Assembly: GCA_937907455.1 (NCBI GenBank)
Contig: CALESQ010000120.1
Coordinates: 35,447-99,446, forward strand
Direction of reading: 5' to 3'
Length of the DNA stretch: 64,000 bases
DNA from: an uncultured Caldilineales bacterium
Lineage (GTDB): Bacteria > Chloroflexota > Anaerolineae > JAAEKA01
The translations under genes were made by a program, and so were the position numbers. Under the pieces are notes generated by a model that was given only the letters and a program-made list of their open reading frames with translations, did no database searches and was not told the DNA's origin. Positions within the stretch are counted from its first letter, which is position 1; each line of letters opens with the position of its first letter. Below, piece after piece: positions 322 through 58,654 of this stretch.

Positions 322-1788
322 TTACGCATTACTCGTTAGAAATCCTGCCAACTCTGCTTTTAGTGCGTGTAACGACGCAAGCTGCACATACATCATGTGG
401 CCGGCTTCGTAGTAGCTCATGCTGATGTTGGCGTGCAGGCTCTTGTCCAGACCGAGGTGATTGAAGGTGTAGCGGGTGGCGAAGTAGGGCGTGGCCAGGT
501 CGTAATAGCCGTTGGCTACATGGACGCGCAGGTGTGGGTTGTTGCTGATAGCGCTGCGCAGCTTTTCGGCCACGTTGACGTATTGGTTCTCGAACTCTTT
601 GTAGCTCCAGTTCTGATACAGCCCCTTGAGGATTTCGTAGGGTAGGTCGCTTTCGTAGCCCAGGTCGCTGCGCACATAATCGTTGAAACAGGCGGTGTAC
701 GCGCCCAAAATGGCTGAGTAGCTGGGATCAGACTCGGCGTGTTCGCCCACAGCGTCGCGGTCAATGCCGGTGTAGCGGCTGTCCAGGCGACCTACAGTGC
801 GTTGCTCGCGGCGTAGCAGCTCTTTGGTGAAGCGGAAGATATCAATACGCAGGTCGCTGCGCTCGACATAATCCTGACTAAGGCCGGTGAAACGGGCCAA
901 CTGCGCGGCGACTCGGCTACGCTGGGCCGCTGGGAGGGCTGCGCCGTGCAGCAAAGCTGCTGCGTAGTCATTTAAGGTGAATTCTTCGACCTGTTGCAGT
1001 AATTCAGTTAAAGGAAGGGCTTGCAGCTCGGCGGGCAGGCGATGGTGGTACCAGGCAGTGGCCGCGTAGGTGGGCAGGAAGAGCAACGGCGGCAGGTCGT
1101 TGCCGGGGTTAAAGTCGGCAGTCTGGAAGTTGAGGATGCTGGACACTAGCATGATGCCGTTTAGCCAGAGGCCGTGACGTTCTTGCAGGTACTCGCTGAG
1201 GCCGGCAGCGCGTGTAGTGCCGTAGCTTTCGCCGATGAGGTATTTCGGGGATAACCACCGACGATAGCGGGTGGTGTAGAGGCGGATGAAATCGCCTACG
1301 GATTCGATGTCTTTTGTGTAGCCGTGATAGTTTTTGGCCTTTTCGCCCACCACGGCGCGGCTGAATCCCGTGCTGATGGGGTCAATGAAAACGAGGTCGC
1401 TGGTATCCAGCAGGCTGGCGTCATTGTCTACCAAGCGATAGGGCGGACGCAGGCTAAAGCCTTCGTCATCTAACAGCACGCGTCGCGGGCCGAGCAGCCC
1501 CAGGTGCATCCACACGGAGGAGGAGCCGGGGCCGCCGTTGAAGGAAAAGGTGACGGGCCGCGCTGTGGGGTCGGCTACGTCGTCGCGGGTGTAGGCGATG
1601 AAGAAGAGCGAGGCTTTGGGCTTTTCGCCCTCAGATGCGCCGTCGTCGTCGCCGCTCTTTTCGGCTTCCTCGCGCAGTACTAGTGTGCCCGCGGTGGCGG
1701 TGTAGGTGATGACCTGGCCGTTGAGGGTGATGCTGTGGTGGGTGATGATGAGGTTGTCTTGCGGGATGGAAGGGGTTGTTTCGGTCAT
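322..1788 (-). CDS. S10 family serine carboxypeptidase
   Basis: 488-aa ORF; motifs FNGGPGSSS and GESYG typical of peptidase S10. Confidence 0.7.
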   Translation of the reverse strand: MTETTPSIPQDNLIITHHSITLNGQVITYTATAGTLVLREEAEKSGDDDGASEGEKPKASLFFIAYTRDDVADPTARPVTFSFNGGPGSSSVWMHLGLLGPRRVLLDDEGFSLRPPYRLVDNDASLLDTSDLVFIDPISTGFSRAVVGEKAKNYHGYTKDIESVGDFIRLYTTRYRRWLSPKYLIGESYGTTRAAGLSEYLQERHGLWLNGIMLVSSILNFQTADFNPGNDLPPLLFLPTYAATAWYHHRLPAELQALPLTELLQQVEEFTLNDYAAALLHGAALPAAQRSRVAAQLARFTGLSQDYVERSDLRIDIFRFTKELLRREQRTVGRLDSRYTGIDRDAVGEHAESDPSYSAILGAYTACFNDYVRSDLGYESDLPYEILKGLYQNWSYKEFENQYVNVAEKLRSAISNNPHLRVHVANGYYDLATPYFATRYTFNHLGLDKSLHANISMSYYEAGHMMYVQLASLHALKAELAGFLTSNA

Positions 1789-2219
1789 TGTTGATGCTCC
1801 GGGTTTGGGGAGGCTCTTACCCCCGGCCCCTCCCCCTGGGGGAGAGGGGAGTGTGTGCTTTCCGGTTTTCTCTCCCAGGGGGAGAGGGTTAGGGTGAGGG
1901 TCAAATCCAGCAGCATCACCCCCACGGCGATCAGCTTGCGGTTGGCTGCTACCAGTGTCACCGAGGCGATATCATGCTGGCTGGTGAGTAGTTGGCTGCG
2001 CTCCAATTCCATGCCGAACAGCACGTCTGCGAGCGCGGCTACGATCACCCCCTGCACGTGCGCCTGCTGCGCGGGGAGATCGCCCAGCGCAGCCAGCCGC
2101 GCGGCATTGCGTACTTGAACATCGGCAACGCCAGCCGCATGTACCGCGCCCGCGGGCAGTTCAACCGGCTCCTCGGTGTTCCAGGGCAGACTGTGCCACG
2201 GTGACGGCTCAAAGGCCAT
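1785..2219 (-). CDS. hypothetical small protein; C-terminus encoded by REP-like element; stop overlaps S10 peptidase start (ATGA)
   Basis: ATG at 2219 directly after CoA-transferase stop (2209-2211); frame stays open through the palindromic element to 1785. No recognisable family; may be a non-coding spacer instead. Confidence 0.3.
   Translation of the reverse strand: MAFEPSPWHSLPWNTEEPVELPAGAVHAAGVADVQVRNAARLAALGDLPAQQAHVQGVIVAALADVLFGMELERSQLLTSQHDIASVTLVAANRKLIAVGVMLLDLTLTLTLSPWERKPESTHSPLPQGEGPGVRASPNPEHQQ
1816..1901. repeat. REP/MITE-like palindromic element, copy A
   Basis: CCCCGGCCCCTCCCCCTGGGGGAGAGGGG ... CTCTCCCAGGGGGAGAGGGTTAGGGTGAGGG; nested inverted repeats; near-identical arms recur at 43976-44096. 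Confidence 0.6.
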
Positions 2220-3441
2220 TGCCGCGACGCTCCTGCAAGCCGGTGATGATACCTTCTTCGTGTAGCCGAGCGATGCCCGCGGCGTCGTAACCCAGTTCGG
2301 CGGCGATTTCATCGCTGTGTTCGCCCAGCCGCGGGGGCGCAATGCGGTAACTCATCGGCGTGCCAGAGAAGTGACCCGGAAAGGCCAGCGACTTGAACAT
2401 GCCCAGCCCGGGATGCTCCATTTCCACGATCATGCGCCGCGCCTGGATGTGCGGATCGTTGAGCGCCTCGTCCACGGCGTAGAGCGGGCCGCCGGGGATT
2501 TCCGCTTCGTTGAGCAGCTCAACCCATTCGTGCGCGGGCCGCGCGGCCAGCAATTCATCCAGGATCGGCGTCAACTGGTCACGGTTGACGTTGCGCAGCG
2601 CGTTGGTGGCAAAGAGGGGGTGCGTCACCAGCGATGGATCCGCGTGGATCACCTCGCAAAACTTGCGCCAGAGCCGTTCGCTGCCTGCGGCCACCACGAT
2701 CCACTTGCCATCGCCCGCCTTGAAGGGCTGATAGGGGGTAATGGTCGGGTGCTGGTTGCCGGTTTTGATCGGGGCGTTACCGCTGACCCAATAGTTGCTC
2801 GCCAGATAGCTCGTCCAATTGAGCTGCGATTCGACCAGGCTGATGTCGAGTGCCTGGCCGACACCGGTATGCTGGCGGGCCAGCAGCGCGGCCAGCACGC
2901 TGATCAGCGCGTAAAGACCCGCGCTGAAGTCGGCCATCGCCATCGGGAAGCGCATCGGGGGATCGCCCTGCTCGCCGGTCAGTTCCATCAAACCGCCCAT
3001 CGCCTGCGCCACGATGTCGAAGCCGCTGCGGTCGGCATACGGCCCGCTGCGGCCAAAGCCGGTGATGCTGACGTGGATCAACTTGGGGTTGCGCGCCAGA
3101 CAGGCTTCGGCAGAAAGGCCGTATTTGTCCAGCGAGGCTTGCCGCGGCAGGTTAATCAGGAAGACGTCGGCGTCGTCGAGCAGGCGATGGAAGATTTCCA
3201 GCCCCTCCGGCTTGGTGTAGTCCAGCGCCAGGCCGCGCTTGTTGCGGTTGGTGGAGAGGAAATAGCCGCTTTCACCCTCGATAAAGGGGGGGCCCCAGCC
3301 GCGACACACATCGCCGATGCCTGGCTGTTCGATCTTGATGACGTCTGCGCCCATGTCGCCGAGGTACATGCTGCATGTCGGCCCGGCCAGCGCCTGAGTA
3401 AGATCAACGACTTTGATATTTTGGAGAATGGTGGGGGTCAT
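2209..3441 (-). CDS. CoA-transferase family III (CaiB/BaiF/formyl-CoA transferase-like)
   Basis: 410 aa; N-terminal VVDLTQALAGPTCSMYLGDMGADVIKIE signature of family III CoA-transferases. Confidence 0.8.
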   Translation of the reverse strand: MTPTILQNIKVVDLTQALAGPTCSMYLGDMGADVIKIEQPGIGDVCRGWGPPFIEGESGYFLSTNRNKRGLALDYTKPEGLEIFHRLLDDADVFLINLPRQASLDKYGLSAEACLARNPKLIHVSITGFGRSGPYADRSGFDIVAQAMGGLMELTGEQGDPPMRFPMAMADFSAGLYALISVLAALLARQHTGVGQALDISLVESQLNWTSYLASNYWVSGNAPIKTGNQHPTITPYQPFKAGDGKWIVVAAGSERLWRKFCEVIHADPSLVTHPLFATNALRNVNRDQLTPILDELLAARPAHEWVELLNEAEIPGGPLYAVDEALNDPHIQARRMIVEMEHPGLGMFKSLAFPGHFSGTPMSYRIAPPRLGEHSDEIAAELGYDAAGIARLHEEGIITGLQERRGNGL

Positions 3442-3535
3442 AATGGTGAATGGTGAGCGGAAGGGAATGGCAGATTGGTATGCCTTCGGCGGGTAGATAG
3501 GTAGTTGCTGAATTTACGTCTGGCTGGTGTATAAA

Positions 3536-4303
3536 TTACTGTTTACCGTCTGCCGCGCCGCGCAGCACGGCAATGATCTCGGCCATGATGGCAACGGCGA
3601 TCTCGGCGGGTGTGTGTGCGGCGATGTCGAGGCCGATGGGCGCGTGGACGCGGGTGAATTTCGTCGCAGGGATGCCCTGCCCGCGGCTGAGCAGATCGAA
3701 CACGGTGCGTATACGGCGCTTGCTGCCGATCATGCCGATGTAGGCCAGTGGCGTGTCCAGCACTTCCAACAGACATTCGACGTCGTGCTGATGGCCGCGG
3801 GTAACGAGTACGAGATAGCTGTCGGTATCCAGGCGGCCCGCAGCCACCCAGTCGCGCATGGTTTCGCGCAGCGGCGTAGCCAGCACGTTGTCAGCCTGCG
3901 GGAAACGTTGACGATTGGCGTATTGTGGGCGGTCGTCCAGCACGGTGATGGTGAAATCGCACAGCTTGCCGAGCTGCGCCAGCGGCACGGCGATGTGTCC
4001 GGCTCCGACGATGATCAATTCGGGTGGACGATGCTGTACCTCAACGAAAACCTTCACCTGGCCGGTGGGTGTGGGGTAGGTCAGGGTTTTGTGAACCCGG
4101 CCAGCCAGCGCGCTCTGGGCATCTGCCAGCACTTGCACTTCCAAGTTGCCGAGGCCAAGCTCGCTGAGCGGCTCGGCATCCAGCCAGACCAGCGCGTGCC
4201 GACCCAGCAGAGCCGCTTCGGGCGCGGCGGTAATTGTCGCCAGCGCGACCGGACGATGCGCTTCCAGGGAGGTGATGAGGGAGGAGAGGAGAGGGGGCAT
4301 CAT
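3536..4303 (-). CDS. XdhC/CoxI family protein, C-terminal Rossmann-like domain (molybdenum hydroxylase maturation)
   Basis: IIVGAGHIAVPLAQLGKLCDFTITVLDDRP motif; ORF-track N-terminal Arg-rich extension (to 4540) judged spurious, start placed at MMPPLL (4303). Confidence 0.65.
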   Translation of the reverse strand: MMPPLLSSLITSLEAHRPVALATITAAPEAALLGRHALVWLDAEPLSELGLGNLEVQVLADAQSALAGRVHKTLTYPTPTGQVKVFVEVQHRPPELIIVGAGHIAVPLAQLGKLCDFTITVLDDRPQYANRQRFPQADNVLATPLRETMRDWVAAGRLDTDSYLVLVTRGHQHDVECLLEVLDTPLAYIGMIGSKRRIRTVFDLLSRGQGIPATKFTRVHAPIGLDIAAHTPAEIAVAIMAEIIAVLRGAADGKQ

Positions 4304-5470: not shown

Positions 5471-5541
5471 ATGCAAGTAGACAAGTAGACAAGTAGACAA
5501 GTACACAAGTACACAAGTACACAAGTATGCAAGTAGACAAG
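5471..5541. repeat. 8-nt tandem repeat array (AGACAAGT/ACACAAGT/ATGCAAGT x9) in divergent mocA / chbG-like intergenic region
   Basis: direct reading; period 8; on the minus (mocA) sense strand reads CTTGTCTA/CTTGTGTA. Confidence 0.8.
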
Positions 5542-5609
5542 CCATACGGGTCACCTTTACTCTTTACCTCTTACTCCCAGCTCATTACTCCTTACTCTCT
5601 GCCTGCAAC

Positions 5610-6504: not shown

Positions 6505-6600
6505 GGGGGTGGATGTGTCCCGGTGGGCGCCCCGGTCTTCAAAATCGGTGGTGGGTGCCGCACAGGCAGCCACGGTGGGTTCGACTCCCATCCACTCCCG
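6505..6600 (+). tRNA. selC: tRNA-Sec (selenocysteine tRNA, anticodon UCA)
   Basis: Hand-folded: 8-bp acceptor stem (GGGGGTGG/CCACTCCC, one GU), 6-bp D-stem with 4-nt D-loop, anticodon loop CTTCAAA (UCA), long variable arm (~25 nt with stem), T-arm GTGGG-TTCGACT-CCCAT with GGTTCGACTCC identical to E. coli selC, discriminator G; 8/5 acceptor/T architecture typical of bacterial tRNA-Sec. Coordinates +/-2. Confidence 0.75.
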
Positions 6601-8594: not shown

Positions 8595-8813
8595 TCGTAA
8601 GCCATCACTGTTTTCTTGGAGACTGTTTAAAAAGCCTTAATCAGTGGTTTCGATACGCTGTTTTGACTGAAACACCGCGTCGGTTGCGGGCGTTATACTC
8701 AAAAACACGCCGGTTGGACGGGCTAACCCGCTACTCAACCACCTTGTTCACTGTGAAATACCGTTTTAAGCAGCTTCTTACTCCTTACTCTTTTTGATCC
8801 CCCAGGAGCCGCC

Positions 8814-17763: not shown

Positions 17764-19311
17764 ATGCGCATCGTTACCGTTGTTCTGCGCTGGAGCCTGT
17801 ATCTTGCTTTGTTGGTCGGCAGCGTTGCCGCGTGTACCTTCCGCCCTCAGCCGCAGCGGCCACAGAGTGAGGCAGCCACCACAACAGCGCAGCTTGAGCC
17901 AACTGTCAGCCCCACACCCACGGCCACTGCCTTGCCACCGGCCGTGCTGCAAGCGGGGGCATTGCCCGCTGGTCAGGTTATCTTTTCCGTGCAGCGTGCA
18001 GGTGAGGCAGGCGCGGGGCTTTGGCGTTTGAATGCCGATGGCTTGCAACTGCTGCGCTCCGATGTGGTCGCTTCGGCCTGGGACTGTGCGGACACCGCCA
18101 TGCCGAGCTGCGTGACGGTTGCCAGTGATGCCGGCCTCTATGCCTTTGATCCCATTAGCCGCAGTGTGCAGTTGTTGGATGTGCTGGATGGCTGGACGTT
18201 GCCGCCAGTTGCGGTTGCCGAACCGCCGATGCTCACCGAGCCTGCCGAGAGTCAACCCGCCGAGCCGGTGACGCTTACCATGTCTGCCGAGAGTATGCCT
18301 GCCGAGCCGGTGACGCTTACCATGTCTGCCGATAGCCCGTCTTTCGAGCCGCTGACGTTCACCGGGCCTGCCGAGAGTCTGCTCACCGAGCCGCTGACGC
18401 TCACCGTGCCCTTTGCCGTGCTGCCGTCGCCCACGCTGGCGCTTTCTGCTGATGGCAAAAGCCTGGCTGTGGCTGCGTTTAGCCAATTGCGCCTGTATGC
18501 GTTGGCTGAACCCGCTTTGCTGGCCGCGCTGCCTGCACCCAACCCCACCGAGATGGCTTGGTCGCCCGATGGTCAATGGCTGGCTGTGATAGCTGATGAC
18601 CGTGGCCGACGCGCCGTGTGGCTGTGGGGTGACGCTGCCGGACAGTTCACCTCGCTGGCGCAGATGGAGGCCGCGGCGCATCTGGCCTGGTCACCGGACA
18701 GCAGTCAACTGGCGTTTGACGCGCGTATGACCGCGGCTACTCCCAGCAATCAGGGCGACCAGTCTGATATTTTCTTGTGGCAGCGCGACAGCAACGAGAT
18801 TCGCAACGTCACCGAGCTGTTTCTCACCAACGGTTGGACGGATCCTGCCTATCAGATCGCGGCCTGGCTGCCGCAGTGGGAGCCAGATGGCATGGCCTTG
18901 CGCTATCTGCGCGGGTTGCCAGCCGATCCCACTACCTACGCGTGGGCACGCCAGACGTTGAGCGGCAATCGCTTTATCAGTATTTTGCCGTTGGCTGTAG
19001 AGCCGGGTGCGGGCTTTTATCCGCAGCAACCGGTTACCGGCCTATGGCTACGCCGCTTGCCGCGTGATGGTCGCGATTTGCTTCAGCAGAGTTTGGATGG
19101 CAATAGCTGGCAGGATGTCGGCGGTACCTTTGCCGAGATACGCAGCGTGGCGTGGCAACCAGCTACGGCCGCGGCGAAGGCTGCCTCACCCCGCCTGCTG
19201 ATCGCTGATCGGCAAAGCCTGCTGCTGCTTGATCCGGTAAGCAACGCCCTGAGCGGCCTGGCCGTTACCTGTGCAGCCTGCGAGATCAGCCACGCGGTAT
19301 GGTTGCCTTGA
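17764..19311 (+). CDS. lipoprotein with TolB/PD40-like beta-propeller repeats and an internal 14-aa tandem repeat
   Basis: ATG 17764 overlapping hisE stop; lipobox LVGSVAAC; AWSPDGQWLAV / AWSPDSSQLAF PD40-like motifs. Confidence 0.5.
   Translation: MRIVTVVLRWSLYLALLVGSVAACTFRPQPQRPQSEAATTTAQLEPTVSPTPTATALPPAVLQAGALPAGQVIFSVQRAGEAGAGLWRLNADGLQLLRSDVVASAWDCADTAMPSCVTVASDAGLYAFDPISRSVQLLDVLDGWTLPPVAVAEPPMLTEPAESQPAEPVTLTMSAESMPAEPVTLTMSADSPSFEPLTFTGPAESLLTEPLTLTVPFAVLPSPTLALSADGKSLAVAAFSQLRLYALAEPALLAALPAPNPTEMAWSPDGQWLAVIADDRGRRAVWLWGDAAGQFTSLAQMEAAAHLAWSPDSSQLAFDARMTAATPSNQGDQSDIFLWQRDSNEIRNVTELFLTNGWTDPAYQIAAWLPQWEPDGMALRYLRGLPADPTTYAWARQTLSGNRFISILPLAVEPGAGFYPQQPVTGLWLRRLPRDGRDLLQQSLDGNSWQDVGGTFAEIRSVAWQPATAAAKAASPRLLIADRQSLLLLDPVSNALSGLAVTCAACEISHAVWLP
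18244..18411 (+). repeat. 42-nt x4 in-frame tandem repeat inside lipoprotein gene (AES-PAEPVTLTMS units)
   Basis: direct reading of near-identical 42-mers. Confidence 0.7.
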
Positions 19312-20614: not shown

Positions 20615-20690
20615 TTGGTTTCGGTACGGGCGGCAGACTTGAGTCGTGCAGGTTGTCGCCTCACGCCGTCCTACTCAACCAGCGGAACGC

Positions 20691-20763
20691 TCATTCCCAA
20701 TTCTCAACTCTCAATTCTCCCTTCTCAACTCTCAATTCCCAATTCCCAATTTTCAACTCCCAT
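20691..20763 (+). repeat. 73-nt G-less heptamer-repeat tract (YTCYCAA x8) forming the entire purA-purB spacer up to the purB ATG
   Basis: direct reading; zero G on the sense strand; no Shine-Dalgarno. Confidence 0.8.
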
Positions 20764-27348: not shown

Positions 27349-27377
27349 TTGACAAACTTTCCTGTCCTGATTATACT
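27349..27377 (+). promoter_or_regulatory. sigma70-type promoter of ilv leader (-35 TTGACA, 17-nt spacer, -10 TATACT)
   Basis: direct reading. Confidence 0.5.
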
Positions 27378-27417
27378 GCGCCTACGTTTGAGACAGGCAG
27401 TTTTTAGTTTATGTCCT

Positions 27418-27519
27418 ATGGCTACCACCGGTTCTACGCTCTTCAACCTCCTTGTCATCCTCATTAGTGTGCTCCTGGTACTTGCCGGGAGCCAATGGCA
27501 GCTGGGAACCGAGCGTTGA
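27418..27519 (+). CDS. ilvB leader peptide (33 aa, branched-chain-rich: MATTGSTLFNLLVILISVLLVLAGSQWQLGTER)
   Basis: run of 14 Leu/Val/Ile codons in 15; lies between the promoter and a rho-independent terminator upstream of ilvB. Confidence 0.55.
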   Translation: MATTGSTLFNLLVILISVLLVLAGSQWQLGTER

Positions 27520-27552
27520 ACCACTTGTAGCAACATCACAAGCATGTGCGAA

Positions 27553-27583
27553 ACCCCTCCCAGCCGCGGAGGGGTTTTTTATT
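27553..27583 (+). terminator. rho-independent attenuator terminator upstream of ilvB
   Basis: CCCCTCC-cagccgcg-GGAGGGG followed by TTTTTTATT. Confidence 0.65.
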
Positions 27584-27741
27584 GAATTGGATAGCAGCCG
27601 GTTAGCTAAATCAAGTCGCTTTCCGGAGTATGGCAAGCCGATCCAGGCGATGAAGCCTCTATCTGATCTGCCCAGCAAGGGCGGGCTCAGGTTGAGGCTT
27701 TTTGTATCTGGTTGGGCAAACACAGGAAAGGTGTGATTCAC

Positions 27742-29460
27742 ATGGAGAAGACAGGCGCTCAAATCGTTTGGGAGACCATTTTGCGCGAAGGCGTGGATAC
27801 GGTCTTCGGCTATCCCGGCGGTGCGACTTTGCCCATTTATGACGCTATGCCGGCATATCCCATCCGCCATGTTCTGGTGCGCCACGAACAGGCTGCCGTC
27901 CACATGGCCGAAGGCTGGGCGCGTGCCACGGGTAAGGTCGGTGTGGCGCTGGCTACCAGCGGCCCCGGGGCTACCAATCTCGTCACTGGTCTGGCAAATG
28001 CCATGATGGATTCGATCCCGATTGTGGCAATCACCGGTCAGGTGGCTACTCATCTGCTGGGCGGCGACGCCTTTCAGGAAACCGACGTGACCGGCATCAC
28101 CTTGCCGATCACCAAGTACAACTATCTCATCACCGACATTGCTGATCTGGGTGAGGCGCTGGTTGAAGCGTTCTATATTGCGCGTAGTGGGCGCCCCGGC
28201 CCGGTGCTGGTGGATATTTGCAAAGACGTACAAAACAGCAAAATTGACTGGGAATACTCTGCTGAGTTGACTCGCCCCGGTCTGGTGAAGGTGTTGCGCG
28301 AACAGCCCGACGCCGTGGTTGCCGCTGCCACGCTGATCAATCAGGCACAGCGCCCGCTGATTATTGCCGGCCACGGTGTGCAGATGGGCGAGGCTCAGGC
28401 TGAATTGATGGAGTTGGCAGAGCGGGCTGAAATTCCCGTGGTCACCACGTTGCTGGGTATTGGTGTCATTACCGAGAACCACCGCCTGGCCCTGGGCATG
28501 GGCGGCATGCACGGCGAGGCTGCCACCAATCACGCCGTGCAGGAATGCGATGTGTTGATAGCTGTGGGAATGCGCTTCGATGACCGTATCACCGGACGGT
28601 TAGATCAGTTTGCACCCAAAGCTAAAGTGATCCACTTCGAGCTGGATCCCTCCGAGGTGGGCAAGAACGTCAAACCCGCGGTGACTGTGCTGGGCGACTG
28701 CAAGCATACCCTGGGGCAACTGCTGCCGAACATCGAACCAAAGCAGCATCAGCAATGGCTGACAACCATTCATGAATGGCAGGACACCACCGGCAAGGTA
28801 GACATTGCCAACCAGGAAGTAGATGAGCTGATCCCGCCTTTTGTGATGCGCCAACTGTGGTATGCCACGCAGGGCAATTGCACGGTGGTGACAGACGTAG
28901 GCCAGCATCAGATGTGGGAGGCCCAATACTTCACCCATCTGCGCCCGGGCCAGTTGATCACCAGCGGCGGGCTGGGCACGATGGGCTTCGGCGTGCCTGC
29001 GGCTGTGGGAGCCAAGATTGGCCGCCCTGACCAATTGGTTTGGGTGATGGTGGGCGATGGTGGCTTCCAGCAAACCATGCAGGAATTGGGCACCATTATT
29101 CAGGAAAATGTCGGGGTGAAAATTGGTATCATCAACAACGGCTTTTTAGGCATGGTGCGTCAGTGGCAGCAGTTCTTCTATGAAAAGCGCTATGCCGGCA
29201 CGCCGATGATCAGTCCAGATTACATGAAGCTGGCTGATGCCTACGGCATTCCTGCATTGCGCGTGACCAAAAACGATGAGGTTTTTTCGGCCATGCAGCA
29301 GGCCAACGCTCATGATGGCCCCTTCCTGATCGAATTCCGTGTGATGGAAGAAGTAAACGTGTACCCGATGGTGGCCCCCGGCGCGGCCGTCGGTGATATG
29401 ATCCGCCGCCCCGGCCCCGCCATTGTCCAGGGCTATTCCGGTGTGCAACCGAGTTGGTAG
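27742..29460 (+). CDS. ilvB: acetolactate synthase large subunit
   Basis: start [27 protein letters not shown]; ThDP-enzyme motifs. Confidence 0.9.
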
Positions 29461-29696
29461 ATTGGTAAGTAGTCAGGAGTAAGTAGTGAGCAGTTGAAGA
29501 GTCTGTGTGAAAGCGTTGCAGAGAATTCCGAAGTGGCAATTTTACCCGTTGAGTTGCCGTAAGCTGGTTAACCCTGGCTTTAGGCGATTTGCCACTTCTG
29601 AATTCTGAATTTCGATTTCTTTAACGTTTTTCAGAGATTGTTTAACTCCTGACGATTTACTTCTTACTCCTTACTGTCTGCAAAAGGATTGAGACC
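29461..29696 (+). promoter_or_regulatory. 236-nt highly structured ilvB-ilvN spacer (nested inverted repeats; GGAGTAAGTAG / CTTACTCCTTAC flanks; 17-bp palindrome GAATTCCGAAGTGGCAA...TTGCCACTTCTGAATTC)
   Basis: direct reading; ilvB and ilvN are usually adjacent. Confidence 0.4.
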
Positions 29697-30230
29697 ATGA
29701 AACACACAGTCGTCGCATGGATGGAAGACCGCCCCGGTGTTTTGTCCCGCGTATCCAATTTGTTCCGCCGTCGTGGATTTAACATCGAAAGCCTGGCCGT
29801 TGGCCCCAGCGAAACTTCGGGCATCAGTCGCATGACCTTTGTGGTGGATGGCGATGAGCGCATGGTGGATCAGGCCGTCAAGCAACTGGAAAAGCAGATT
29901 GACGTGACCCGCGTCGAGGATGTCACCGATCAGCCGGTGGTCGTGCGCGAGCTGGCGTTGATCCGGGTGCGCACCGACACACAAACCCGCACCGAGATCA
30001 TGCAGATCGTGGATGTGTATCGTGCCCAGATTGTGGACATTGCTCTCGATTCGCTGATTATTCAGGTGGTGGGTGCGGAAGAGCGCATTAACAGCCTGAT
30101 TGATCTGCTGGACCACTATGGCATTCGTGAGATGGTGCGTACCGGACGCGTAGCCATCACCCGCGGGCGCGCTACACTGGAAAGCGCACAGCATAATGGC
30201 AACGGCAATGGCCGCAAGATGGGAATTTAG
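29697..30230 (+). CDS. ilvN: acetolactate synthase small (regulatory) subunit
   Basis: [42 protein letters not shown] domain. Confidence 0.85.
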
Positions 30231-30303
30231 TGCAATAGTACGCAGGTGAGATGGTGAGATAGCGGTTGTTCTATAGTCGCGGCACTGCTTTTGCCAGGCC
30301 TCG

Positions 30304-30408
30304 CTACACATTCACCAACTCACTCACTATCTCACTATCTTACTATCTCACTAACTCACTAATTCACTATCTCACTCCCACACTCCCACACTATCTCTAC
30401 TTTACCCC
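30304..30408 (+). repeat. 105-nt G-less octamer-repeat tract (CTCACTAT x~10) in ilvC 5' leader
   Basis: direct reading; preceded by complementary purine-type copy GGTGAGATGGTGAGATAG (30246-30263). Confidence 0.8.
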
Positions 30409-30417
30409 GAGGAATTC

Positions 30418-31422: not shown

Positions 31423-31437
31423 TTGGTACGAGGAATA

Positions 31438-31648
31438 AGTACACAAGTAGACAAGGAAGAAGTACACAAGCAGACAAGGAAGAAGTACACAAGTAGACAA
31501 GGAAAAAGTACACAGGCAGATGTAGATAAGGAAGAAGTACAGAATACATAAAAATTCCCAGTCACCTGTGTACTTGTTTACCTGTCTACCTGTCTACCTG
31601 TATACTTGTTTACCTGTCTACCTGTCTACCTGTGTACTTGTCTACTTT
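31438..31648. repeat. paired inverted repeat arrays between ilvC and leuA: purine-type 23-nt units (GTACACAAGTAGACAAGGAAGAA x4) then pyrimidine-type octamers (CTACCTGT / CTACTTGT x~10)
   Basis: direct reading; arrays are partially complementary (e.g. GTACACAGG / CCTGTGTAC). Confidence 0.75.
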
Positions 31649-31664
31649 CCCGAAGGAGCCCTCC

Positions 31665-33308: not shown

Positions 33309-33450
33309 CGAAGCGGCAAGCGGTAATCGGAGCAGAACATGCCGATATTCCATCCTGCTGCCCCTTCCTGCCATCTGCCCCTCCATCATTAACCACCCGT
33401 CCATTCTCGTTCTCACCTCTCAATTCTCACCTCTCCCCAAGGAGCCTCTC

Positions 33451-33621: not shown

Positions 33622-33813
33622 CCGCCATGCTGTGGCGATTTTTGGCTGAACTTCATCCCATGATGGGGCGACCGAGCAAAGACGCTCCTGTTGTGTCATC
33701 ACATCCTGTGTCCACCGGCGAGGTCATACCGCCCTCAATTTACTGTGGGCTGCAAGGCCCGCCCGGCTGCGCCGCGCACATCATTGGTGGCCGCATTGAA
33801 TCGGGAGCATCGC

Positions 33814-36800
33814 ATGAAACCAAGCCTTAGCGGGCCAGGCCTTGCAGCGCCTGGCCCACTCTACGACCCCTCTTTTGAGCATGATGCCTGTGGCACCGGC
33901 TTTGTGGCTCAGCGCAGCGGTGCGCGCAGCCATCGTGTGCTGCAATTGGCCCTGGAGGCGCTGTGTAACCACGCCCACCGCGGCGCTGTGGCGGCTGATG
34001 GCCGCTCCGGTGATGGCGCTGGCATCCTCACCCAACTGCCGCACAAGCTGATCGCGCGCGATCTGGCCCGGCTTGGCGTGCGTACCCCCGCCCCGGGCGA
34101 TGTCGCCGTAGCGATGGTGTTCATGCCTCTGCGCAATCTGGTACACCGCGCTCGCAGCGAGACGCTGCTGCAGCAGGCCATTGGTGAATTCGGCTTGGAA
34201 TTCCTGGGCTGGCGTGAAGTCCCCGTCAACCTTGAGGCGCTGGGCGAATGGGCGATCAGCCTGCGACCCTACATCGTTCAGGCCTTTGTCGGGCGTCCCC
34301 CAGCGCTGGCTCGCGGCGACAGCTTCGAGCGTGCCCTTTACCTGGTGCGCAAACGCGCTACCCAGCTTTGCTGGGCCGAGGGCATCAGCAATTTCTATAT
34401 TGCCTCCTTTTCGGCTAAAACCATCGTCTACAAGGGGCTGTTCATGGCCCCGCAACTGGCTAATTTCTATCTGGACATGGCCGATGCCGATTTCGAGACC
34501 GCGCTGGCGGTTTTTCACCAGCGCTACAGCACCAACACCTTTCCCACCTGGGAGCGCGCCCAGCCTTTCCGTTTGCTCTGCCATAACGGCGAGATCAACA
34601 CCCTGCGCGGCAACATCAATTGGATGCGTGCCCGTGAAGCGGATCTCGTGCGTTCGGCTCGGCCTTATTTCGGCGAAGCAGTCAGTTATTTGGCGCCGGT
34701 GATCAGCGAGCGCGGCAGCGATTCCGCCATGCTCGACAACGCCCTCGATCTGTTGGTGCAGTCGGGCCGTGACATTCGCCACGCCATGCTGATGCTGGTG
34801 CCGCGCGCCTGGGAGCACGATCCCGAACTGTCTCCCGAGGCCCGCGCCTTCTATCACTATCATGCCTGCCTGCAGGAACCCTGGGATGGCCCCGCGGCGC
34901 TGGCCTTCACCGATGGCACGGTAGTGGGTAGCACACTTGACCGTAACGGCCTGCGTCCGGCGCGCTATCTGACCACCGCCGACGGGCTGGTGATTATGGC
35001 CTCGGAAGCTGGTTCCGTACACATTGATGAGCGCGACGTTACCGCCAAAGGCCGCCTTGGCCCGGGCGAAATGTTGGCCGTAGATACCGCGGGCGGCGAA
35101 ATGCTGGCTACCGGCGCAATCATCGAGCGCCTGGCCGCGGCCTATCCCTATCAACGCTGGCTGGACGAAAATCTGGTGCGGCTGGAAGATTTGGTGACGC
35201 CGGAGGAAAGCAGCTACGTGCCGCCGGTGACCGTCAGCACCCGCATGTTGCCTTCGCGTCGCCGCAATCTTGCCGCCGCTTCAGAGATCGCCCCTGCCGC
35301 CTCTGCTGCTGACAGCTCGCTTACCGCGCTGCAAGCAGCCTTTGGCTATAATCGTGAAGAATTGGTAGTGCTGTTTCGCCCGATGTGGCAGCAAGGCGCA
35401 GAGGCTATCGGCTCGATGGGCGATGACACGCCTTCGGCTGCGCTCAGCAGGCTTCCCCGTCCCCTGTTCCATTACTTCTATCAACGGTTTGCCGAAGTCA
35501 CCAACCCCCCGATTGATCCGCTGCGCGAGGCTCAGGTAATGTCGCTGGCGCAACGCGTCGGACGACGCAGCAGCCTGCTTGGCCGCGGGCCTGAGGCTGC
35601 GCGCCTGGTGGAGCTGGCCGGTCCGGTACTCAGCAACCAGCACATTCAGGCGTTGCGCGAGCTAAAGCAATACCTCGGCCCGGAGCGCGCCGAAGAGTTT
35701 CAGACCGCCACGCTCGATACCACCTGGCCGGTGGTGGATGGCGTAGATGGGCTGGAGGCGGCGGTGAAGCGGCTGTGCAATCAGGCAGTGGCCTCGGTGA
35801 AATCAGGCGTTAGCTTGCTGATCCTCAGCGACCGCGCCCTGCAAGCCCGACGCACGCTGATTCCTGCGCTGCTGGCTACCTCAGCCGTACATCAGCGTTT
35901 GATTCAGGCAGGTGTGCGCAACCAAGTGAGCCTGGTGATTGAAACCGGCGAAGCGCGCGATGTGCATCACCTGGCTGCATTGGTGGGCTTTGGGGCCAGC
36001 GCTGTGAACCCCTGGCTGGCGCTGCGTACCGTGGAAGACGAGGTGCGTAGCGCGGGTCGCCATGCCGAAGGTATCAGCGTGGCCGAGGGGGTTGAGAACT
36101 ATCGCAAAGCGTTGGAAAAGGGCCTGCTCAAAATCATGTCCAAGATGGGCATTACCACCGTAGACAGCTACTGCGGCGCGCAGATTTTTGATGTATTGGG
36201 TCTGGCGCAGGATGTGGTGGATCGTTACTTCCCCGGCACACCGGCGCGCCTGGGTGGTCGTGGCCTGGCCGACATCGCAGCCGACGTGCTGGCTTGGCAC
36301 GCCGCGGCTTATCCTGCCGGTGATGCATCCGCCGCTTTGGCCAGCTATGGCTTGTTCAAGTTCAAGCGTGACGGCGAATATCACAGCTATAATCCCGACG
36401 TAGTGCGCGCCCTGCACGAGACAACAGGCCTCTCCCTCCCCTCTTCCACCACCAAAGCAGCCCGGGGTGAGGGTGATTCTTCCTCTGCGTCAGGGGCCGG
36501 GGATGAGGGTGACTCTCCCTCTGCGTCAGAGGCCGGGGGTGAGGGCCTCTCCCCTGCTTACCGTCGCTACACCGAGCTGGTACAGGGGCGGCCTCTCACC
36601 ACGCTGCGCGACCTGCTGGACTTTGCTCCGCGCCGCGACCCTGTTGCATTGGACGAGGTAGAAGCACCGGAGGCTATTTTGCGCCGCTTCTCCACCGCGG
36701 CCATGTCGCACGGGGCGCTCAGCGGCATCACTCACGAAACGTTGGCCGTCGCTATGAATCGCCTGGGCGGAGCCTCCAACAGCGGCGAGGGCGGTGAGGA

Positions 36801-38568
36801 CGAAGCCCGCTTTGCTGATGAACGCAACAGCAAGATCAAACAAGTAGCCTCTGGGCGCTTCGGTGTTACACCGGCCTATCTGATGTCTGCTCAAGAGCTG
36901 CAAATCAAGATGGCGCAAGGTTCCAAGCCGGGCGAAGGCGGCCAGTTGCCGGGCCATAAGGTCACGGACGAGATTGCCCGACTGCGCCACAGCACCCCCG
37001 GCGTGGCGTTGATCTCCCCGCCGCCCCATCACGATATCTACAGCATCGAGGACCTGGCGCAACTGATTTTCGATCTGAAGCAGGTAAACCCTGATGCCGC
37101 GGTGTCAGTCAAGCTGGTGAGTGAAGCAGGTGTCGGCACGGTAGCTGCCGGAGTCGCCAAAGGCCACGCCGATCTAATCCACCTCAGCGGTGCCGATGGT
37201 GGTACAGGGGCATCGCCTCTTAGCAGCATCAAACATGCTGGTGGGTCGTGGGAATTGGGTCTGGCCGAGACGCAGCATACCCTGCTCACCAACGGTTTGC
37301 GCAGCCGCGTGCGTGTGCGCGTGGATGGCGGCTTTCAGTCGGGCCGTGATGTGCTGATCGCGGCCTTGCTGGGTGCGGATGAATTCAGCTTCGGCACCGC
37401 CGCTCTGATCGCCGTGGGCTGTAAAATGGCTCGCGCTTGCCACACCAACACCTGTCCCGTGGGCGTGGCTACGCAGCGCGCCGATCTGATTGCCAAATTC
37501 CCCGGCCAACCGGAGCATCTGATGGTATTTCTGCATCAGGTAGCTGAGGAGGTGCGGCAATTGTTGGCGCGGCTGGGTTATCGCACGTTACAAGAGGTAA
37601 TCGGCCACGCCGAGCTGCTCACCCAGGCAGTGAGCGGTGAAGCCGCCAGTTGGCTGGATTTGGAGCCGCTGCTGTGGACGCCAGACACCGGTCGCCCGCG
37701 TCGTGCCGTGGACGAGCGCAACGCGTTGCTGGCAGGTTCGGCTCTGGGCGACCGTCTGGCGGAGGACGCGCTGGACGATCTGGCTGATTTCAGCGCTCCG
37801 GTGCGACTGCGCTATGCCATCAGCAACACTGATCGCACAGTTGGGGCGCGGCTGGCCGGGCAAATCGCGCGGCAGCATGGTAATGTTGGCTTGCCTGCGG
37901 GCAGCATCACCGCCGAGTTCGAGGGTACAGCGGGCCAAAGTTTCGGTGCGTTTCTGTGCCACGGCATTCACCTGCATCTTACCGGTCAGGCCAACGACTA
38001 CATCGGCAAGGGTATGGGCGGCGGCGAAATTGTAGTTCGTCCGCGTGTTGATGCCGCCTATGTGTGGCATGAAAACGTTGTCATCGGCAACACGGCTCTG
38101 TATGGCGCTACTGATGGCGCGCTCTATGCCGCAGGCCGCGCCGGTGAGCGTTTTGCCGTGCGCAACAGCGGTGCGCAGGCAGTCGTGGAAGGCGTAGGCG
38201 ACCACGGCTGCGAATATATGACCGGCGGTGTAGCGGTGATCCTGGGTGACACCGGACGCAACTTCGGCGCGGGCATGACCGGCGGCCTGGCCTATGTCTA
38301 CGATCCTGCAGATGCCTTGCCCGGTCGCTACAATGCTCAGTTGATCACTCTGCGCCGTGTGCAGCGCGTCGCACACGAAAAACAACTTCGTGCGCTCATC
38401 CGTCATCATGCACAAACCACCGGCAGCCCGCGTGCCCGCGCCATCCTTAGCGACTGGGACACCGAGCTGGGCAACTTCTGGTTGGTGATCCCCAGAGACG
38501 CCGTCGCCGCCATTGAAGCCGTCAACGAAGGCGCAGAGAATGAAGCGCGCGAGGGGATAACAGGATGA
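33814..38568 (+). CDS. gltB: glutamate synthase large subunit
   Basis: start MKPSLSG...CGTGFVAQ (Ntn amidotransferase Cys1 after Met-processing), central, FMN and GXGXG domains; 1584 aa. Confidence 0.9.
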   Translation: MKPSLSGPGLAAPGPLYDPSFEHDACGTGFVAQRSGARSHRVLQLALEALCNHAHRGAVAADGRSGDGAGILTQLPHKLIARDLARLGVRTPAPGDVAVAMVFMPLRNLVHRARSETLLQQAIGEFGLEFLGWREVPVNLEALGEWAISLRPYIVQAFVGRPPALARGDSFERALYLVRKRATQLCWAEGISNFYIASFSAKTIVYKGLFMAPQLANFYLDMADADFETALAVFHQRYSTNTFPTWERAQPFRLLCHNGEINTLRGNINWMRAREADLVRSARPYFGEAVSYLAPVISERGSDSAMLDNALDLLVQSGRDIRHAMLMLVPRAWEHDPELSPEARAFYHYHACLQEPWDGPAALAFTDGTVVGSTLDRNGLRPARYLTTADGLVIMASEAGSVHIDERDVTAKGRLGPGEMLAVDTAGGEMLATGAIIERLAAAYPYQRWLDENLVRLEDLVTPEESSYVPPVTVSTRMLPSRRRNLAAASEIAPAASAADSSLTALQAAFGYNREELVVLFRPMWQQGAEAIGSMGDDTPSAALSRLPRPLFHYFYQRFAEVTNPPIDPLREAQVMSLAQRVGRRSSLLGRGPEAARLVELAGPVLSNQHIQALRELKQYLGPERAEEFQTATLDTTWPVVDGVDGLEAAVKRLCNQAVASVKSGVSLLILSDRALQARRTLIPALLATSAVHQRLIQAGVRNQVSLVIETGEARDVHHLAALVGFGASAVNPWLALRTVEDEVRSAGRHAEGISVAEGVENYRKALEKGLLKIMSKMGITTVDSYCGAQIFDVLGLAQDVVDRYFPGTPARLGGRGLADIAADVLAWHAAAYPAGDASAALASYGLFKFKRDGEYHSYNPDVVRALHETTGLSLPSSTTKAARGEGDSSSASGAGDEGDSPSASEAGGEGLSPAYRRYTELVQGRPLTTLRDLLDFAPRRDPVALDEVEAPEAILRRFSTAAMSHGALSGITHETLAVAMNRLGGASNSGEGGEDEARFADERNSKIKQVASGRFGVTPAYLMSAQELQIKMAQGSKPGEGGQLPGHKVTDEIARLRHSTPGVALISPPPHHDIYSIEDLAQLIFDLKQVNPDAAVSVKLVSEAGVGTVAAGVAKGHADLIHLSGADGGTGASPLSSIKHAGGSWELGLAETQHTLLTNGLRSRVRVRVDGGFQSGRDVLIAALLGADEFSFGTAALIAVGCKMARACHTNTCPVGVATQRADLIAKFPGQPEHLMVFLHQVAEEVRQLLARLGYRTLQEVIGHAELLTQAVSGEAASWLDLEPLLWTPDTGRPRRAVDERNALLAGSALGDRLAEDALDDLADFSAPVRLRYAISNTDRTVGARLAGQIARQHGNVGLPAGSITAEFEGTAGQSFGAFLCHGIHLHLTGQANDYIGKGMGGGEIVVRPRVDAAYVWHENVVIGNTALYGATDGALYAAGRAGERFAVRNSGAQAVVEGVGDHGCEYMTGGVAVILGDTGRNFGAGMTGGLAYVYDPADALPGRYNAQLITLRRVQRVAHEKQLRALIRHHAQTTGSPRARAILSDWDTELGNFWLVIPRDAVAAIEAVNEGAENEAREGITG
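36464..36560 (+). repeat. ~37-nt x2.5 tandem repeat inside gltB encoding a Gly/Glu/Asp/Ser-rich linker (GEGDSSSASGAG DEGDSPSASEAG GEG), REP-element-like sequence
   Basis: direct reading; shares GGGGTGAGGG / CCTCTCCCC motifs with the REP-like element. Confidence 0.5.
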
Positions 38569-38636
38569 CAAGGTGACAGGGTGACTATTTACTCCCTCCC
38601 CTTGTCACCCCCTCACCCCCATCCCCTCTTTACCCA

Positions 38637-38692
38637 CCTGTCTACCTGTCTACTTATCTACTTATCTACTAGTCTACATGTCTACCTCTCTT
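38637..38692 (+). repeat. octamer repeat array (CTACCTGT / CTACTTAT x7) in G-poor leuC leader
   Basis: direct reading; whole 38586-38710 leader is pyrimidine-rich. Confidence 0.75.
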
Positions 38693-38710
38693 CTCTCCCA
38701 ATCCCCGCCC

Positions 38711-40117
<1,407 letters not shown>

Positions 40118-40746: not shown

Positions 40747-40830
40747 ACCGCTCACTTCTCACTTTACTGGATGCTGGTTACTACTTACATCTTACTTCTT
40801 ACTACTCCCTCCTCCCCAAGGATCTCCCTA

Positions 40831-43975: not shown

Positions 43976-44096
43976 CTTTAGTTTGCCCTCACCCCCGGCC
44001 CCTCTCCCAGGGGGAGAGGGGAGTGTCTGCTTTCCGGTTCTCTCCGCTTTCCGGTTCCCTCTTTTTCTGGTTCCCTCTCCCTTTGGGAGAGGGTTA
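43976..44096. repeat. REP/MITE-like palindromic element, copy B (with internal triplicated CTTTCCGGTTCCCTC sub-repeat)
   Basis: CCCTCACCCCCGGCCCCTCTCCCAGGGGGAGAGGGG ... GGGAGAGGGTTAGGGTGAGGG; between convergent cimA and membrane-protein gene. Confidence 0.6.
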
Positions 44097-44114
44097 GGGT
44101 GAGGGCTGCTTCCT

Positions 44115-57865: not shown

Positions 57866-58654
57866 TCACCGCGCCACGGTTAATTCGCTGGGGTCACCGC
57901 TGCCGCATTGTCGGGAGTAAGCCCAAACCGCTGCGGCTACGCGCTTATCTACTGTTTCCTCGCCGGGGAACAGCACCGCCAATTGGCTGCGATAGGCCAA
58001 GATCGCCTCGATCTTGCGCGTCACCTGCGCGGCACTTAGCGGAATAGCTTCGATCTGCCATTGCACATCGTTTGGCAGCTGTACCAGCGTCTGGGCTAAC
58101 GCGTCAGGCTGGCGCACAGCATAAGGGTAATCTACGTAGAAACGCACGCAGGCCCCGCGCTGATGCAGCCGCAGCGCGGCGCGCCGCGCCAGTTGATGAT
58201 CCACATGATTGCCTACTGCCAGCGGCGCAATGATTTCGCAGCCGCGTGATGCCGTGGCTTGCGCCGTTACCCAGGCCACAATCGCTTCAACGAGCGGCGC
58301 ATCTTCGGCATCTGGCGGGCCAAACAGCGCGGCTTCGTCGGTCACCAGCCAGCGGCTGCCCGCAGCGTCGCGGCGATAGATGCAGTCCAGCCACGGCCCC
58401 AGCACACTGCGTGCCTGCAAAATCGCCAGTGCTTCCGCTTCCTCAGCACGGCGTTGGCTGATGAGATCCTCATCGGCCAGCGGGCGGCCATGGATCTGCT
58501 GCGCAAAGGGTGACAGGTCGGTGTAATCAGGACGCGCGGCAAACAGGGTAAGCACCGCCGCGGCCCGGCCTTCATCAGCCAGCCGCGCCAACAGACCGCC
58601 GCACGACAGGGCCGCATCATCGTAATGAGGAGAGAGGATCAGCGTTTCAGCCAT
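57866..58654 (-). CDS. PIG-L/LmbE family N-acetylglucosaminyl deacetylase
   Basis: start MAETLILSPHYDDAALSCGG (PIG-L HxDD motif); ORF-track extension to 58807 rejected. Confidence 0.7.
   Translation of the reverse strand: MAETLILSPHYDDAALSCGGLLARLADEGRAAAVLTLFAARPDYTDLSPFAQQIHGRPLADEDLISQRRAEEAEALAILQARSVLGPWLDCIYRRDAAGSRWLVTDEAALFGPPDAEDAPLVEAIVAWVTAQATASRGCEIIAPLAVGNHVDHQLARRAALRLHQRGACVRFYVDYPYAVRQPDALAQTLVQLPNDVQWQIEAIPLSAAQVTRKIEAILAYRSQLAVLFPGEETVDKRVAAAVWAYSRQCGSGDPSELTVAR

Follow-up and report, generated by a model that had tools for sequence, protein, structure and literature searches.

Why are the genes for the large and small subunits of acetolactate synthase, which normally adjoin each other, so far apart in an uncultured Caldilineales bacterium, and what is the sequence that separates them? 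In the 64,000-nt stretch of contig CALESQ010000120.1 analysed here (hereafter the window), ilvB ends with a TAG stop codon at 29458-29460 and ilvN starts with an ATG at 29697-29699, which leaves a spacer of exactly the 236 nt (29461-29696) that had been noted in the original prediction for this locus. Outside the Chloroflexota, the gap between the two genes is about 0-19 nt, so that the underlying premise of normally adjacent genes also holds. The original prediction proposed that the spacer might be an independent regulatory RNA such as a riboswitch, a translational control of ilvN, or an inserted miniature palindromic element. Our analysis suggests that, on balance, the spacer is best read as a transcribed, repeat-derived intercistronic hairpin of the short tandemly repeated repetitive (STRR) kind, in which the repeated units are heptamers. 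By analogy with other transcribed hairpins, its function is probably an effect on mRNA processing or stability, and translational control of ilvN is possible as part of the same reading.

The sense strand of the spacer is predicted to fold into one long hairpin (29457-29681), consisting of a 72-bp main stem in 13 helical segments, in which 29457-29539 pairs with 29589-29681, and an apical branch. The structure has 85 pairs in total, including 14 G:U pairs. Its minimum free energy is -95.2 kcal/mol, compared to -59.9 ± 4.5 kcal/mol for dinucleotide shuffles (z = -7.9), and z stays at -7.0 when each arm is shuffled separately, demonstrating that the pairing is sequence-specific and not merely compositional. 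The antisense strand folds to -62.2 kcal/mol only. The near-perfect 17-bp palindrome described in the original prediction (GAATTCCGAAGTGGCAA at 29523-29539 and TTGCCACTTCTGAATTC at 29589-29605) is present with one mismatch, and the flanking inverted repeats GGAGTAAGTAG / CTTACTCC are real. The claim of a highly structured spacer is therefore borne out (z about -7 to -8), but the structure is larger than had been stated, and the palindromes are parts of a single hairpin. The inner palindrome grows to 18 nt with 94% complementarity (AGAATTCCGAAGTGGCAA at 29522-29539 on the left and TTGCCACTTCTGAATTCT at 29589-29606 on the right, the single mismatch being at 29529); a search for it with up to 3 mismatches gave two matches, with 0.16 expected. 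Between its halves lies an apical region of 49 nt (29540-29588) with a branch hairpin, in which 29553-29567 pairs with 29574-29588. The stem is otherwise plain and long, and has neither a multi-helix junction nor a conserved loop. The 5' arm (29464-29539) is purine- and G-rich (27 G, 8 C), and the 3' arm (29589-29681) is pyrimidine-rich and G-poor (42 T, 21 C, 12 G). At the base of the hairpin, the ilvB stop codon is predicted to be paired (unpaired probability 0.01), and the ribosome-binding region of ilvN (29684-29699, with AAGGA at 29684-29688) lies just 3' of the hairpin foot and would be approximately half accessible (mean unpaired probability approximately 0.5). These features, like the other features of the ilv/leu genes given below, are on the plus strand.

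Both arms retain traces of short tandem units. Autocorrelation of the 3' arm gives z = +3.8 at lag 7 and +3.3 at lag 14; for the 5' arm, z is +3.3 at lag 14 and only +1.3 at lag 7. Decayed heptamers of a GAGTAAG family occupy 29465-29493 in the 5' arm and those of a CTTACTC family 29656-29675 in the 3' arm, where Tandem Repeats Finder also reports rows at 29596-29611 and 29657-29675 (TTCTGAA x2.3, TTACTCC x2.7). Tandem units of about 7 nt are thus present as a residual signal only and, because a period of 7/14 survives in the arms, the spacer looks like an old, decayed heptamer hairpin. Autocorrelation detected no heptamer periodicity in the apical 49 nt, which are possibly a foreign piece. 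The sequence CTTACTCCTTACT occurs 11 times in the window with up to 2 mismatches, compared to 0.38 expected. Members of this family are found just upstream of four starts (5610, 8814, 29697, and 40831), and an inverted match lies in the 5' arm of the spacer at 29471-29490.

Evidence also comes from the same gap in related bacteria. We gathered 105 loci, of which 57 are from species-representative genomes, 38 are from metagenomes, and 10 are contigs that encode an identical IlvN; the genomes nearest to the window are metagenome-assembled Anaerolineae/Caldilineales genomes of the Chloroflexota. The 52 distinct ilvB-ilvN gaps within the clade range from 0 to 236 nt, that of the window being the longest, and in close relatives (IlvN at least 74% identical) they mostly measure 93-210 nt. 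In the closest other species (L001, IlvN 95% identical), the spacer has 94 nt as opposed to 236 nt. Between these two loci, identity is 95% over the last 167 nt around the end of ilvB and 87% over the first 165 nt of ilvN; the spacers themselves do not align past the first 7 nt. The spacers of the relatives are likewise unrelated to each other, and their common build is a run of 7-8-nt units followed by complementary units. Such ilvB-ilvN hairpins made from unrelated units are present at L001-L009, L012, L018, L029, L032, L068-L071, L081, and L098, with the exception that the arrays of L003 are not complementary. Among the units are GATGAAC/GATGAAT (L002, L068), CGTAATG (L004, L005), CAGTAAT (L007), CGGTAAA (L008, L009), TTGGTAG (L001, L006), GCGGGTG (L012), GGGATTA (L018), and GGAGATC (L029, L032). 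The unit families are genome-specific and are shared by different spacers of one genome: GATGAAT is found in both the ilvB-ilvN and ilvN-ilvC gaps of L002 and L068, and TTGGTAG in both gaps of L006. The spacer of L018 (4886-5000) is composed of GGGGATT/GGGATTA units and their complement, which form a near-perfect 25-bp stem. The spacer thus shares with STRR-type elements a sequence that is hypervariable between close relatives while the structure persists.

The structural trend extends to the operon spacers as a class. The 71 distinct operon spacers with a length of 80 nt or more have a median z of -3.7 with the halves shuffled separately, and z is -3 or lower for 40 of them. The stem of the strong hairpins in close relatives usually begins 1-8 nt past the stop codon and does not reach the Shine-Dalgarno sequence. 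In addition, the hairpins have a strict polarity on the sense strand. The 5' arm has more G than C and the 3' arm more C than G in 34 of the 35 strong hairpins and none is reversed (p about 1e-10; some of the 35 entries are related, and most are independent sequences). The L003 spacer (3784-3949) consists of approximately 10 copies of GAAGTCA followed by approximately 8 copies of CACCGAT and has the usual G-then-C polarity. These data bear on the possibility of a recent neutral insertion, for which the original prediction had listed a lack of conservation and absence from the closest orthologous loci as the telling outcome. Conservation of the sequence is indeed lacking; most relatives nevertheless have, at the same position, a hairpin that agrees in architecture and polarity.

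The covariation analysis with orthologous spacers proposed in the original prediction is impossible, since no ilvB-ilvN spacer from outside the species aligns. Pairs within a unit family (L002/L068, L029/L080, and L008/L073) have no two-sided compensatory changes and a few one-sided ones. Compensatory counts obtained from alignments of unrelated families are alignment artefacts and were not used. The two arms of the window's own spacer can, however, be compared with each other. An unbiased DNA alignment of the 5' arm with the reverse complement of the 3' arm has 70 Watson-Crick positions, 13-14 G.U, 0-1 A.C, and 20 transversions, i.e., this spacer shows a strong excess of changes that keep pairing only in the sense RNA.

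Within the species, the spacer is stable. In 10 same-species contigs from different samples, it is 99.6-100% identical and constant in length, with two single-nucleotide polymorphisms, 29529 C>G and 29693 G>A; the former falls on the sole mismatch of the inner palindrome, where it yields a G:U pair. The ilvC-leuA spacer downstream differs by whole units between strains, as expected for slippage: its length in the window is 242 nt, whereas L058 has one CCTGTCTA unit more (250 nt) and L059 lacks one 23-nt unit and also has changes in the 3' arm (218 nt).

The spacer belongs to a series. The gene order is ilvB-ilvN-ilvC-leuA on a single strand, and all three gaps are long and hairpin-forming. The ilvN-ilvC spacer (30231-30417, z = -5.0) contains GGTGAGAT units followed by an array of 6.8 copies of the 8-mer CTCACTAT, and the ilvC-leuA spacer (31423-31664, z = -4.9) contains 3.7 copies of a 23-nt purine-rich unit followed by 10 copies of the 8-mer ACCTGTCT. 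Both are the same kind of element as the ilvB-ilvN spacer and are plainly tandem-built, and a sliding fold scan of the window places all three gaps among its strongest outliers. The CAAGTAGA / CTTGTCTA family of the ilvC-leuA spacer also fills the ilvC-leuA spacers of L002 and L068, and is found elsewhere in the window at 5474-5541 and 38636-38691.

Several lines of evidence support the gene assignments and the view that the spacer is transcribed. On a same-species contig (L058), Pfam identifies the TPP_enzyme N, M, and C domains in IlvB, ACT and ALS_ss_C in IlvN, KARI_N and KARI_C in IlvC, and HMGL-like and LeuA_dimer in LeuA. The ends of ilvB and ilvN are correctly set, since the IlvB and IlvN proteins of relatives align from the first to the last residue. 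The gene map of the window is based on a codon-usage model; an earlier map based on G+C content at third codon positions picked antisense open reading frames (ORFs) for ilvC and leuA. Within the spacer itself, ORFs of 22 and 33 residues and antisense ORFs were considered and found to be without support. A consensus scan places a strong promoter-like site (TTGACA-17-TATACT, 27349-27377) upstream of ilvB. Behind this site lie a leader ORF of 33 codons (MATTGSTLFNLLVILISVLLVLAGSQWQLGTER, 27418-27519), in which Leu, Val, and Ile are abundant, and then a terminator-like GC stem with a U-run (about 27553-27585). Together, these features (27349-27585) make up a classical ilv attenuator. The same scan detects no sigma-70-like promoter or intrinsic-terminator-like site within 29461-29696. 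The spacer thus probably lies inside one transcription unit, and its non-coding nature, its position between presumably co-transcribed genes, and its inverted arrays with hairpin potential are those of an STRR-type element.

How might such a hairpin have arisen, and what would it do? According to the STRR-type reading, tandem arrays of a genome-specific 7-nt unit would have formed after the ilvB stop codon (GAGTAAG) and, as the complement CTTACTC, before the ilvN ribosome-binding site; slippage would have expanded the arrays in inverted orientation, and subsequent decay would have left the residual period of 7/14. In the ilvB-ilvN-ilvC-leuA mRNA, the 236 nt would collapse to an imperfect helix of approximately 72 bp, with the ilvB stop codon in its base and its 3' foot 2 nt before the ilvN Shine-Dalgarno sequence. 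Folding would take the extra length out of the path from stop to start and place the stop codon and ribosome-binding site side by side. A ribosome terminating on ilvB would melt the base of the stem and be freed beside the ribosome-binding site of ilvN, so that coupled synthesis of the two subunits would be kept. The predicted stem is also long enough for an RNase III site, for which about 20 bp or more of double-stranded RNA are expected. It would probably be a substrate of this enzyme or a barrier to 3' exonucleases and may therefore set the stability of mRNA segments, as has been proposed for STRR hairpins in cyanobacteria and demonstrated for the hmw heptamer hairpin of Haemophilus. Being G-poor and C/U-rich, the 3' arm would serve as a leader in which no start codons or Shine-Dalgarno mimics compete, and this would account for the G-then-C polarity. 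Such an element would not be a ligand sensor.

The alternative that has to be taken most seriously, which we consider possible but rather unlikely, is that the spacer is functionless repeat DNA, self-propagating or generated by slippage, that expands in any non-coding gap of this lineage. The hairpin form and the polarity would then merely mark those insertions that are harmless, because they contain no start or Shine-Dalgarno mimics and spare coupling by folding on themselves. The complete sequence turnover between sister species fits this explanation, as do the polymorphic copy number in the neighbouring ilvC-leuA spacer and the genome-specific, dispersed unit families; moreover, no long simple repeats are commoner in bacteria than heptamers, which have been ascribed to polymerase slippage (Mrazek 2007, as cited in PMC4679880). 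Several further observations weigh against a functional hairpin, and some of them directly favour functionless repeats. The arrays of L003 have the right polarity without complementarity (z = -0.4), and short ilvB-ilvN spacers exist, with 33 nt in L044 and 24-48 nt in many more distant Caldilineae. Since all of these do without it, the hairpin is dispensable for ilvBN expression. When pooled, the other spacers have 106 G.U versus 167 A.C, a reversal of the wobble signature, and it is often their antisense fold that is the more stable one; selection for a sense-RNA helix is therefore not evident class-wide. Even in the window's spacer, the 13:1 ratio could partly reflect the T-rich 3' arm, a composition that favours G.U. 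Given this composition and the reversed pooled ratio, we limit the wobble argument to the ilvB-ilvN spacer of the window and have dropped the G:U asymmetry as class-wide evidence of RNA-level selection. The heptamer periodicity of the spacer is weak, in particular at lag 7 of the 5' arm. Strong hairpin spacers in the window are seen only in the ilv/leu cluster: the co-directional spacers with z of -5 or lower are the three ilv/leu gaps and 38569-38711, ahead of the next leu genes, and a wider generality in the genome is not evident. Finally, every functional step of the STRR-type reading rests on inference. Nevertheless, the strict polarity (34/35) and the recurrent complementarity (40/71, with half-wise shuffles) require some sort of selection. 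In the window, moreover, the regularity of the repeats is mostly lost, yet 85 pairs, the 13:1 sense wobble excess, and a constant length in 10 samples are retained.

The remaining identities are considerably less probable. The proposal of a miniature palindromic element is right in so far as the DNA of the spacer is palindromic and derived from repeats, but the spacer is no miniature inverted-repeat transposable element (MITE). That a MITE or a mobile palindrome similar to repetitive extragenic palindromic (REP) sequences or to REP doublets forming hairpins (REPINs) was inserted between ilvB and ilvN seems improbable to us, even though the build is palindromic, the spacer is AT-richer than its surroundings (GC 0.42 versus about 0.6), short pieces of the arms recur elsewhere in the window, and a nested insertion could account for the inner 18-nt palindrome and its 49-nt loop, which is non-periodic. 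The spacer and its inner palindrome each occur only once in the 64-kb window and have no copy in the 95 loci of other organisms or in plasmid and phage collections; only same-species copies of the spacer turned up among the window, the fetched loci, plasmids, and phages. There is no target-site duplication or flanking direct repeat at the spacer. The recurring pieces are 12-19-nt stretches of the heptamer family and not an element, as would be the case for REP sequences or bacterial interspersed mosaic elements (BIMEs). The arms pair along their full length and, in relatives, the orthologous sites carry different repeat hairpins instead of an empty site, neither of which is expected for a MITE.

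We give very little credence to a dedicated ilvN regulatory RNA that would respond to branched-chain amino acids or a related signal, whether as a riboswitch, as a T-box-like sensor, or as an operator bound by a protein. Its attraction is a strongly structured element ahead of ilvN, the gene for the regulatory subunit. However, the Rfam scan called for in the original prediction gave no relevant match (Rfam 15; the whole window at gathering score and 29300-29850 at E ≤ 10), and conservation of either sequence or detailed shape is lacking even in the species whose IlvN is 95% identical, in which the spacer is 94 nt long and unalignable. The proposal of a riboswitch, or of any conserved regulatory RNA, is therefore not supported. 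The plain long stem lacks the multi-helix junction or conserved loop of such RNAs, similar hairpins occupy the ilvN-ilvC and ilvC-leuA gaps, and the leader-peptide attenuator upstream of ilvB already supplies amino-acid sensing. Hardly any weight can be given either to transcriptional punctuation, whether by an intrinsic terminator or attenuator that follows ilvB or by a promoter within the spacer that serves ilvN. A stable stem immediately 3' of a stop codon would suit a terminator, but no T-run follows the stem (AAAAGGATTGAG, beginning AAAAGG, comes after 29681), the consensus scan described above finds neither type of site, and the stem is far longer than those of intrinsic terminators.

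A more far-reaching extension of the STRR-type reading, which we put forward as a speculation with rather low odds of being right, is that Caldilineales-like Chloroflexota may use strand-polar repeat hairpins as tunable intercistronic modules, with changes in repeat number, such as those of the ilvC-leuA spacer within the species, adjusting the ratio of operon products. The G-rich arm would follow the stop codon and the C-rich, G-free arm would form the next gene's leader. By way of the stem, terminating ribosomes would pass to the next start in a shunt-like form of coupling, or a cut by RNase III would free a clean leader. If this were true, such hairpins would constitute a heritable, fast-evolving dial on operon stoichiometry, concentrated here in genes for branched-chain amino acids.

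Other repeats in the window provide some context. Across all 22 co-directional spacers, most of which are not repeat hairpins, the polarity is forward in 5 and reverse in 2. For genes on the minus strand, the polarity is mirrored; for example, a stop near 57866 is followed by G-rich sequence, and the start at 3441 is preceded by CACCATT units. G-poor, C/T/A-rich tandem arrays of 7-8-nt units abut starts at 20686-20762, 33411-33435, 38636-38691, 40778-40806, 8774-8789, and 5555-5604, and one on the minus strand (3442-3456) lies directly upstream of a start. The units of these start-proximal arrays are ATTCTCA, TCTCACC, ACCTGTCT, TTACTAC, CTTACTC, and CACCATT, and the starts at 20763 and 38712, behind such arrays, have no recognisable Shine-Dalgarno sequence. 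Between two minus-strand genes, a CGTAATG/GTTACG-family hairpin (261-332) overlaps with its 5' arm the stop codon of the upstream gene; its unit family is that of the ilvB-ilvN spacers of L004 and L005. A GC-rich palindromic repeat (CCCTCACCCC...CCCTCTCCC / GGGAGAGGG...GGGTGAGGG) with intergenic copies at 1816-1898 and 43985-44106 represents a class distinct from the heptamer hairpins, and the strongest fold outlier of the window (1741-1980) coincides with its first copy. Similar GGGTGAGGG/CCCTCT motifs occur in a 36-nt unit repeated 2.3 times (36462-36545) inside a large ORF (33784-38568). A 42-nt tandem repeat of 4.6 copies (18217-18410, 76% matches), inside a predicted coding region on the plus strand (17764-19311), probably encodes a repeated 14-residue protein motif. 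The window also contains a tRNA-Sec gene (6505-6599, plus strand; Rfam RF01852, 71 bits), and the organism therefore probably uses selenocysteine.

The question of what short-period repeat hairpins do in the gaps between bacterial genes dates back to the description of the cyanobacterial STRR sequences. The value of the present data lies in a comparative series and in a testable polarity and architecture, and not in a new principle. Throughout this series, unrelated sequences occupy a constant position in the same operon and keep both the fold and the G-to-C polarity with respect to translation; in one old copy, the ilvB-ilvN spacer of the window, pairing is retained mainly via sense-strand wobble pairs. 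The phenomenon is thereby extended to another phylum of filamentous bacteria, and its hairpins can be tested for translational coupling, RNA processing, or neither. For annotation, the data warn against taking spacers in these genomes for riboswitches because they are long and highly structured.

How does the spacer compare with known systems? In cyanobacteria, STRR heptamer hairpins are described from hupS-hupL and the nif clusters of Anabaena, Nostoc, and Lyngbya; their function is unproven, and transcript stability or translational coupling is proposed for examples such as that of hupS-hupL (PMC2670836; PMC4284476 ref. 58). For nif transcripts, stem-loops at processing sites lengthen half-lives (PMC4284476). 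The window's spacer resembles the STRR hairpins in its tandem units of approximately 7 nt, in the inverted arrays that give rise to a hairpin, and in its position between genes that would be co-transcribed, including, as here, the two subunit genes of one enzyme. It differs in its host, a Caldilineales-like member of the Chloroflexota and not a filamentous cyanobacterium, and in its unit sequences. The window's copy is also old and degenerate, with only residual periodicity, and its stem takes up all of the gap between the stop codon and the Shine-Dalgarno sequence.

A long mRNA hairpin in which a transcribed heptamer array is paired with a G-rich arm is also known from the 5' untranslated region of Haemophilus influenzae hmw1A, where an (ATCTTTC)n hairpin of variable repeat number is processed by RNase III and acts as a cis-acting post-transcriptional element (PMC12721329). 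That hairpin is not intercistronic, has the opposite polarity (pyrimidine repeats on the left, G-rich arm on the right), and serves adhesin phase variation; cleavage by RNase III is demonstrated there and conjectured for the ilvB-ilvN hairpin. Polarity is the point of contact with the G-rich heptamers of Xanthomonas (GGGAATC) and Nostoc (GGGGAT/CT), which on the coding strand are G-rich within 50 bp after stops and C-rich within 50 bp before starts (PMC4692102). L018 even uses GGGGATT/GGGATTA, and its heptamer is the one whose formation of G-quadruplexes was studied in Nostoc PCC 7120. These heptamers have been studied as G-quadruplex formers and not as paired inverted arrays, and the units of the window lack G-tracts. 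Direct TAACTGA repeats before starts, with a proposed role in translation, occur in marine Beggiatoaceae, cyanobacteria, and Bacteroidetes (PMC4679880); like the arrays described here, they are G-poor heptamer arrays directly before starts, often without a canonical Shine-Dalgarno sequence, in filamentous hosts (PMC4679880). They differ in that a single unit is conserved across taxa and forms no complementary arm or hairpin, whereas the units of the Chloroflexota are genome-specific and paired.

In enterobacteria, REP sequences and BIMEs act as 3' mRNA stabilisers within operons, e.g., between malE and malF. Together with REPINs, they share with the window's element that they are intergenic, transcribed, hairpin-forming, and species-specific. 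However, REP sequences are discrete, conserved units of approximately 35 nt with hundreds of near-identical copies, mobilised by REP-associated tyrosine transposases (RAYTs), and the element of the window is a unique 225-nt stem composed of decayed tandem heptamers. Our literature search, the coverage of which was incomplete, found no papers that tie Chloroflexi to heptamer repeats. The spacer is a homologue of none of the systems compared. Its build, position, and evolutionary behaviour match those of the cyanobacterial STRR heptamer hairpins and, since the nearest genomes are Chloroflexota, we regard the element as an analogue of STRR in another phylum.

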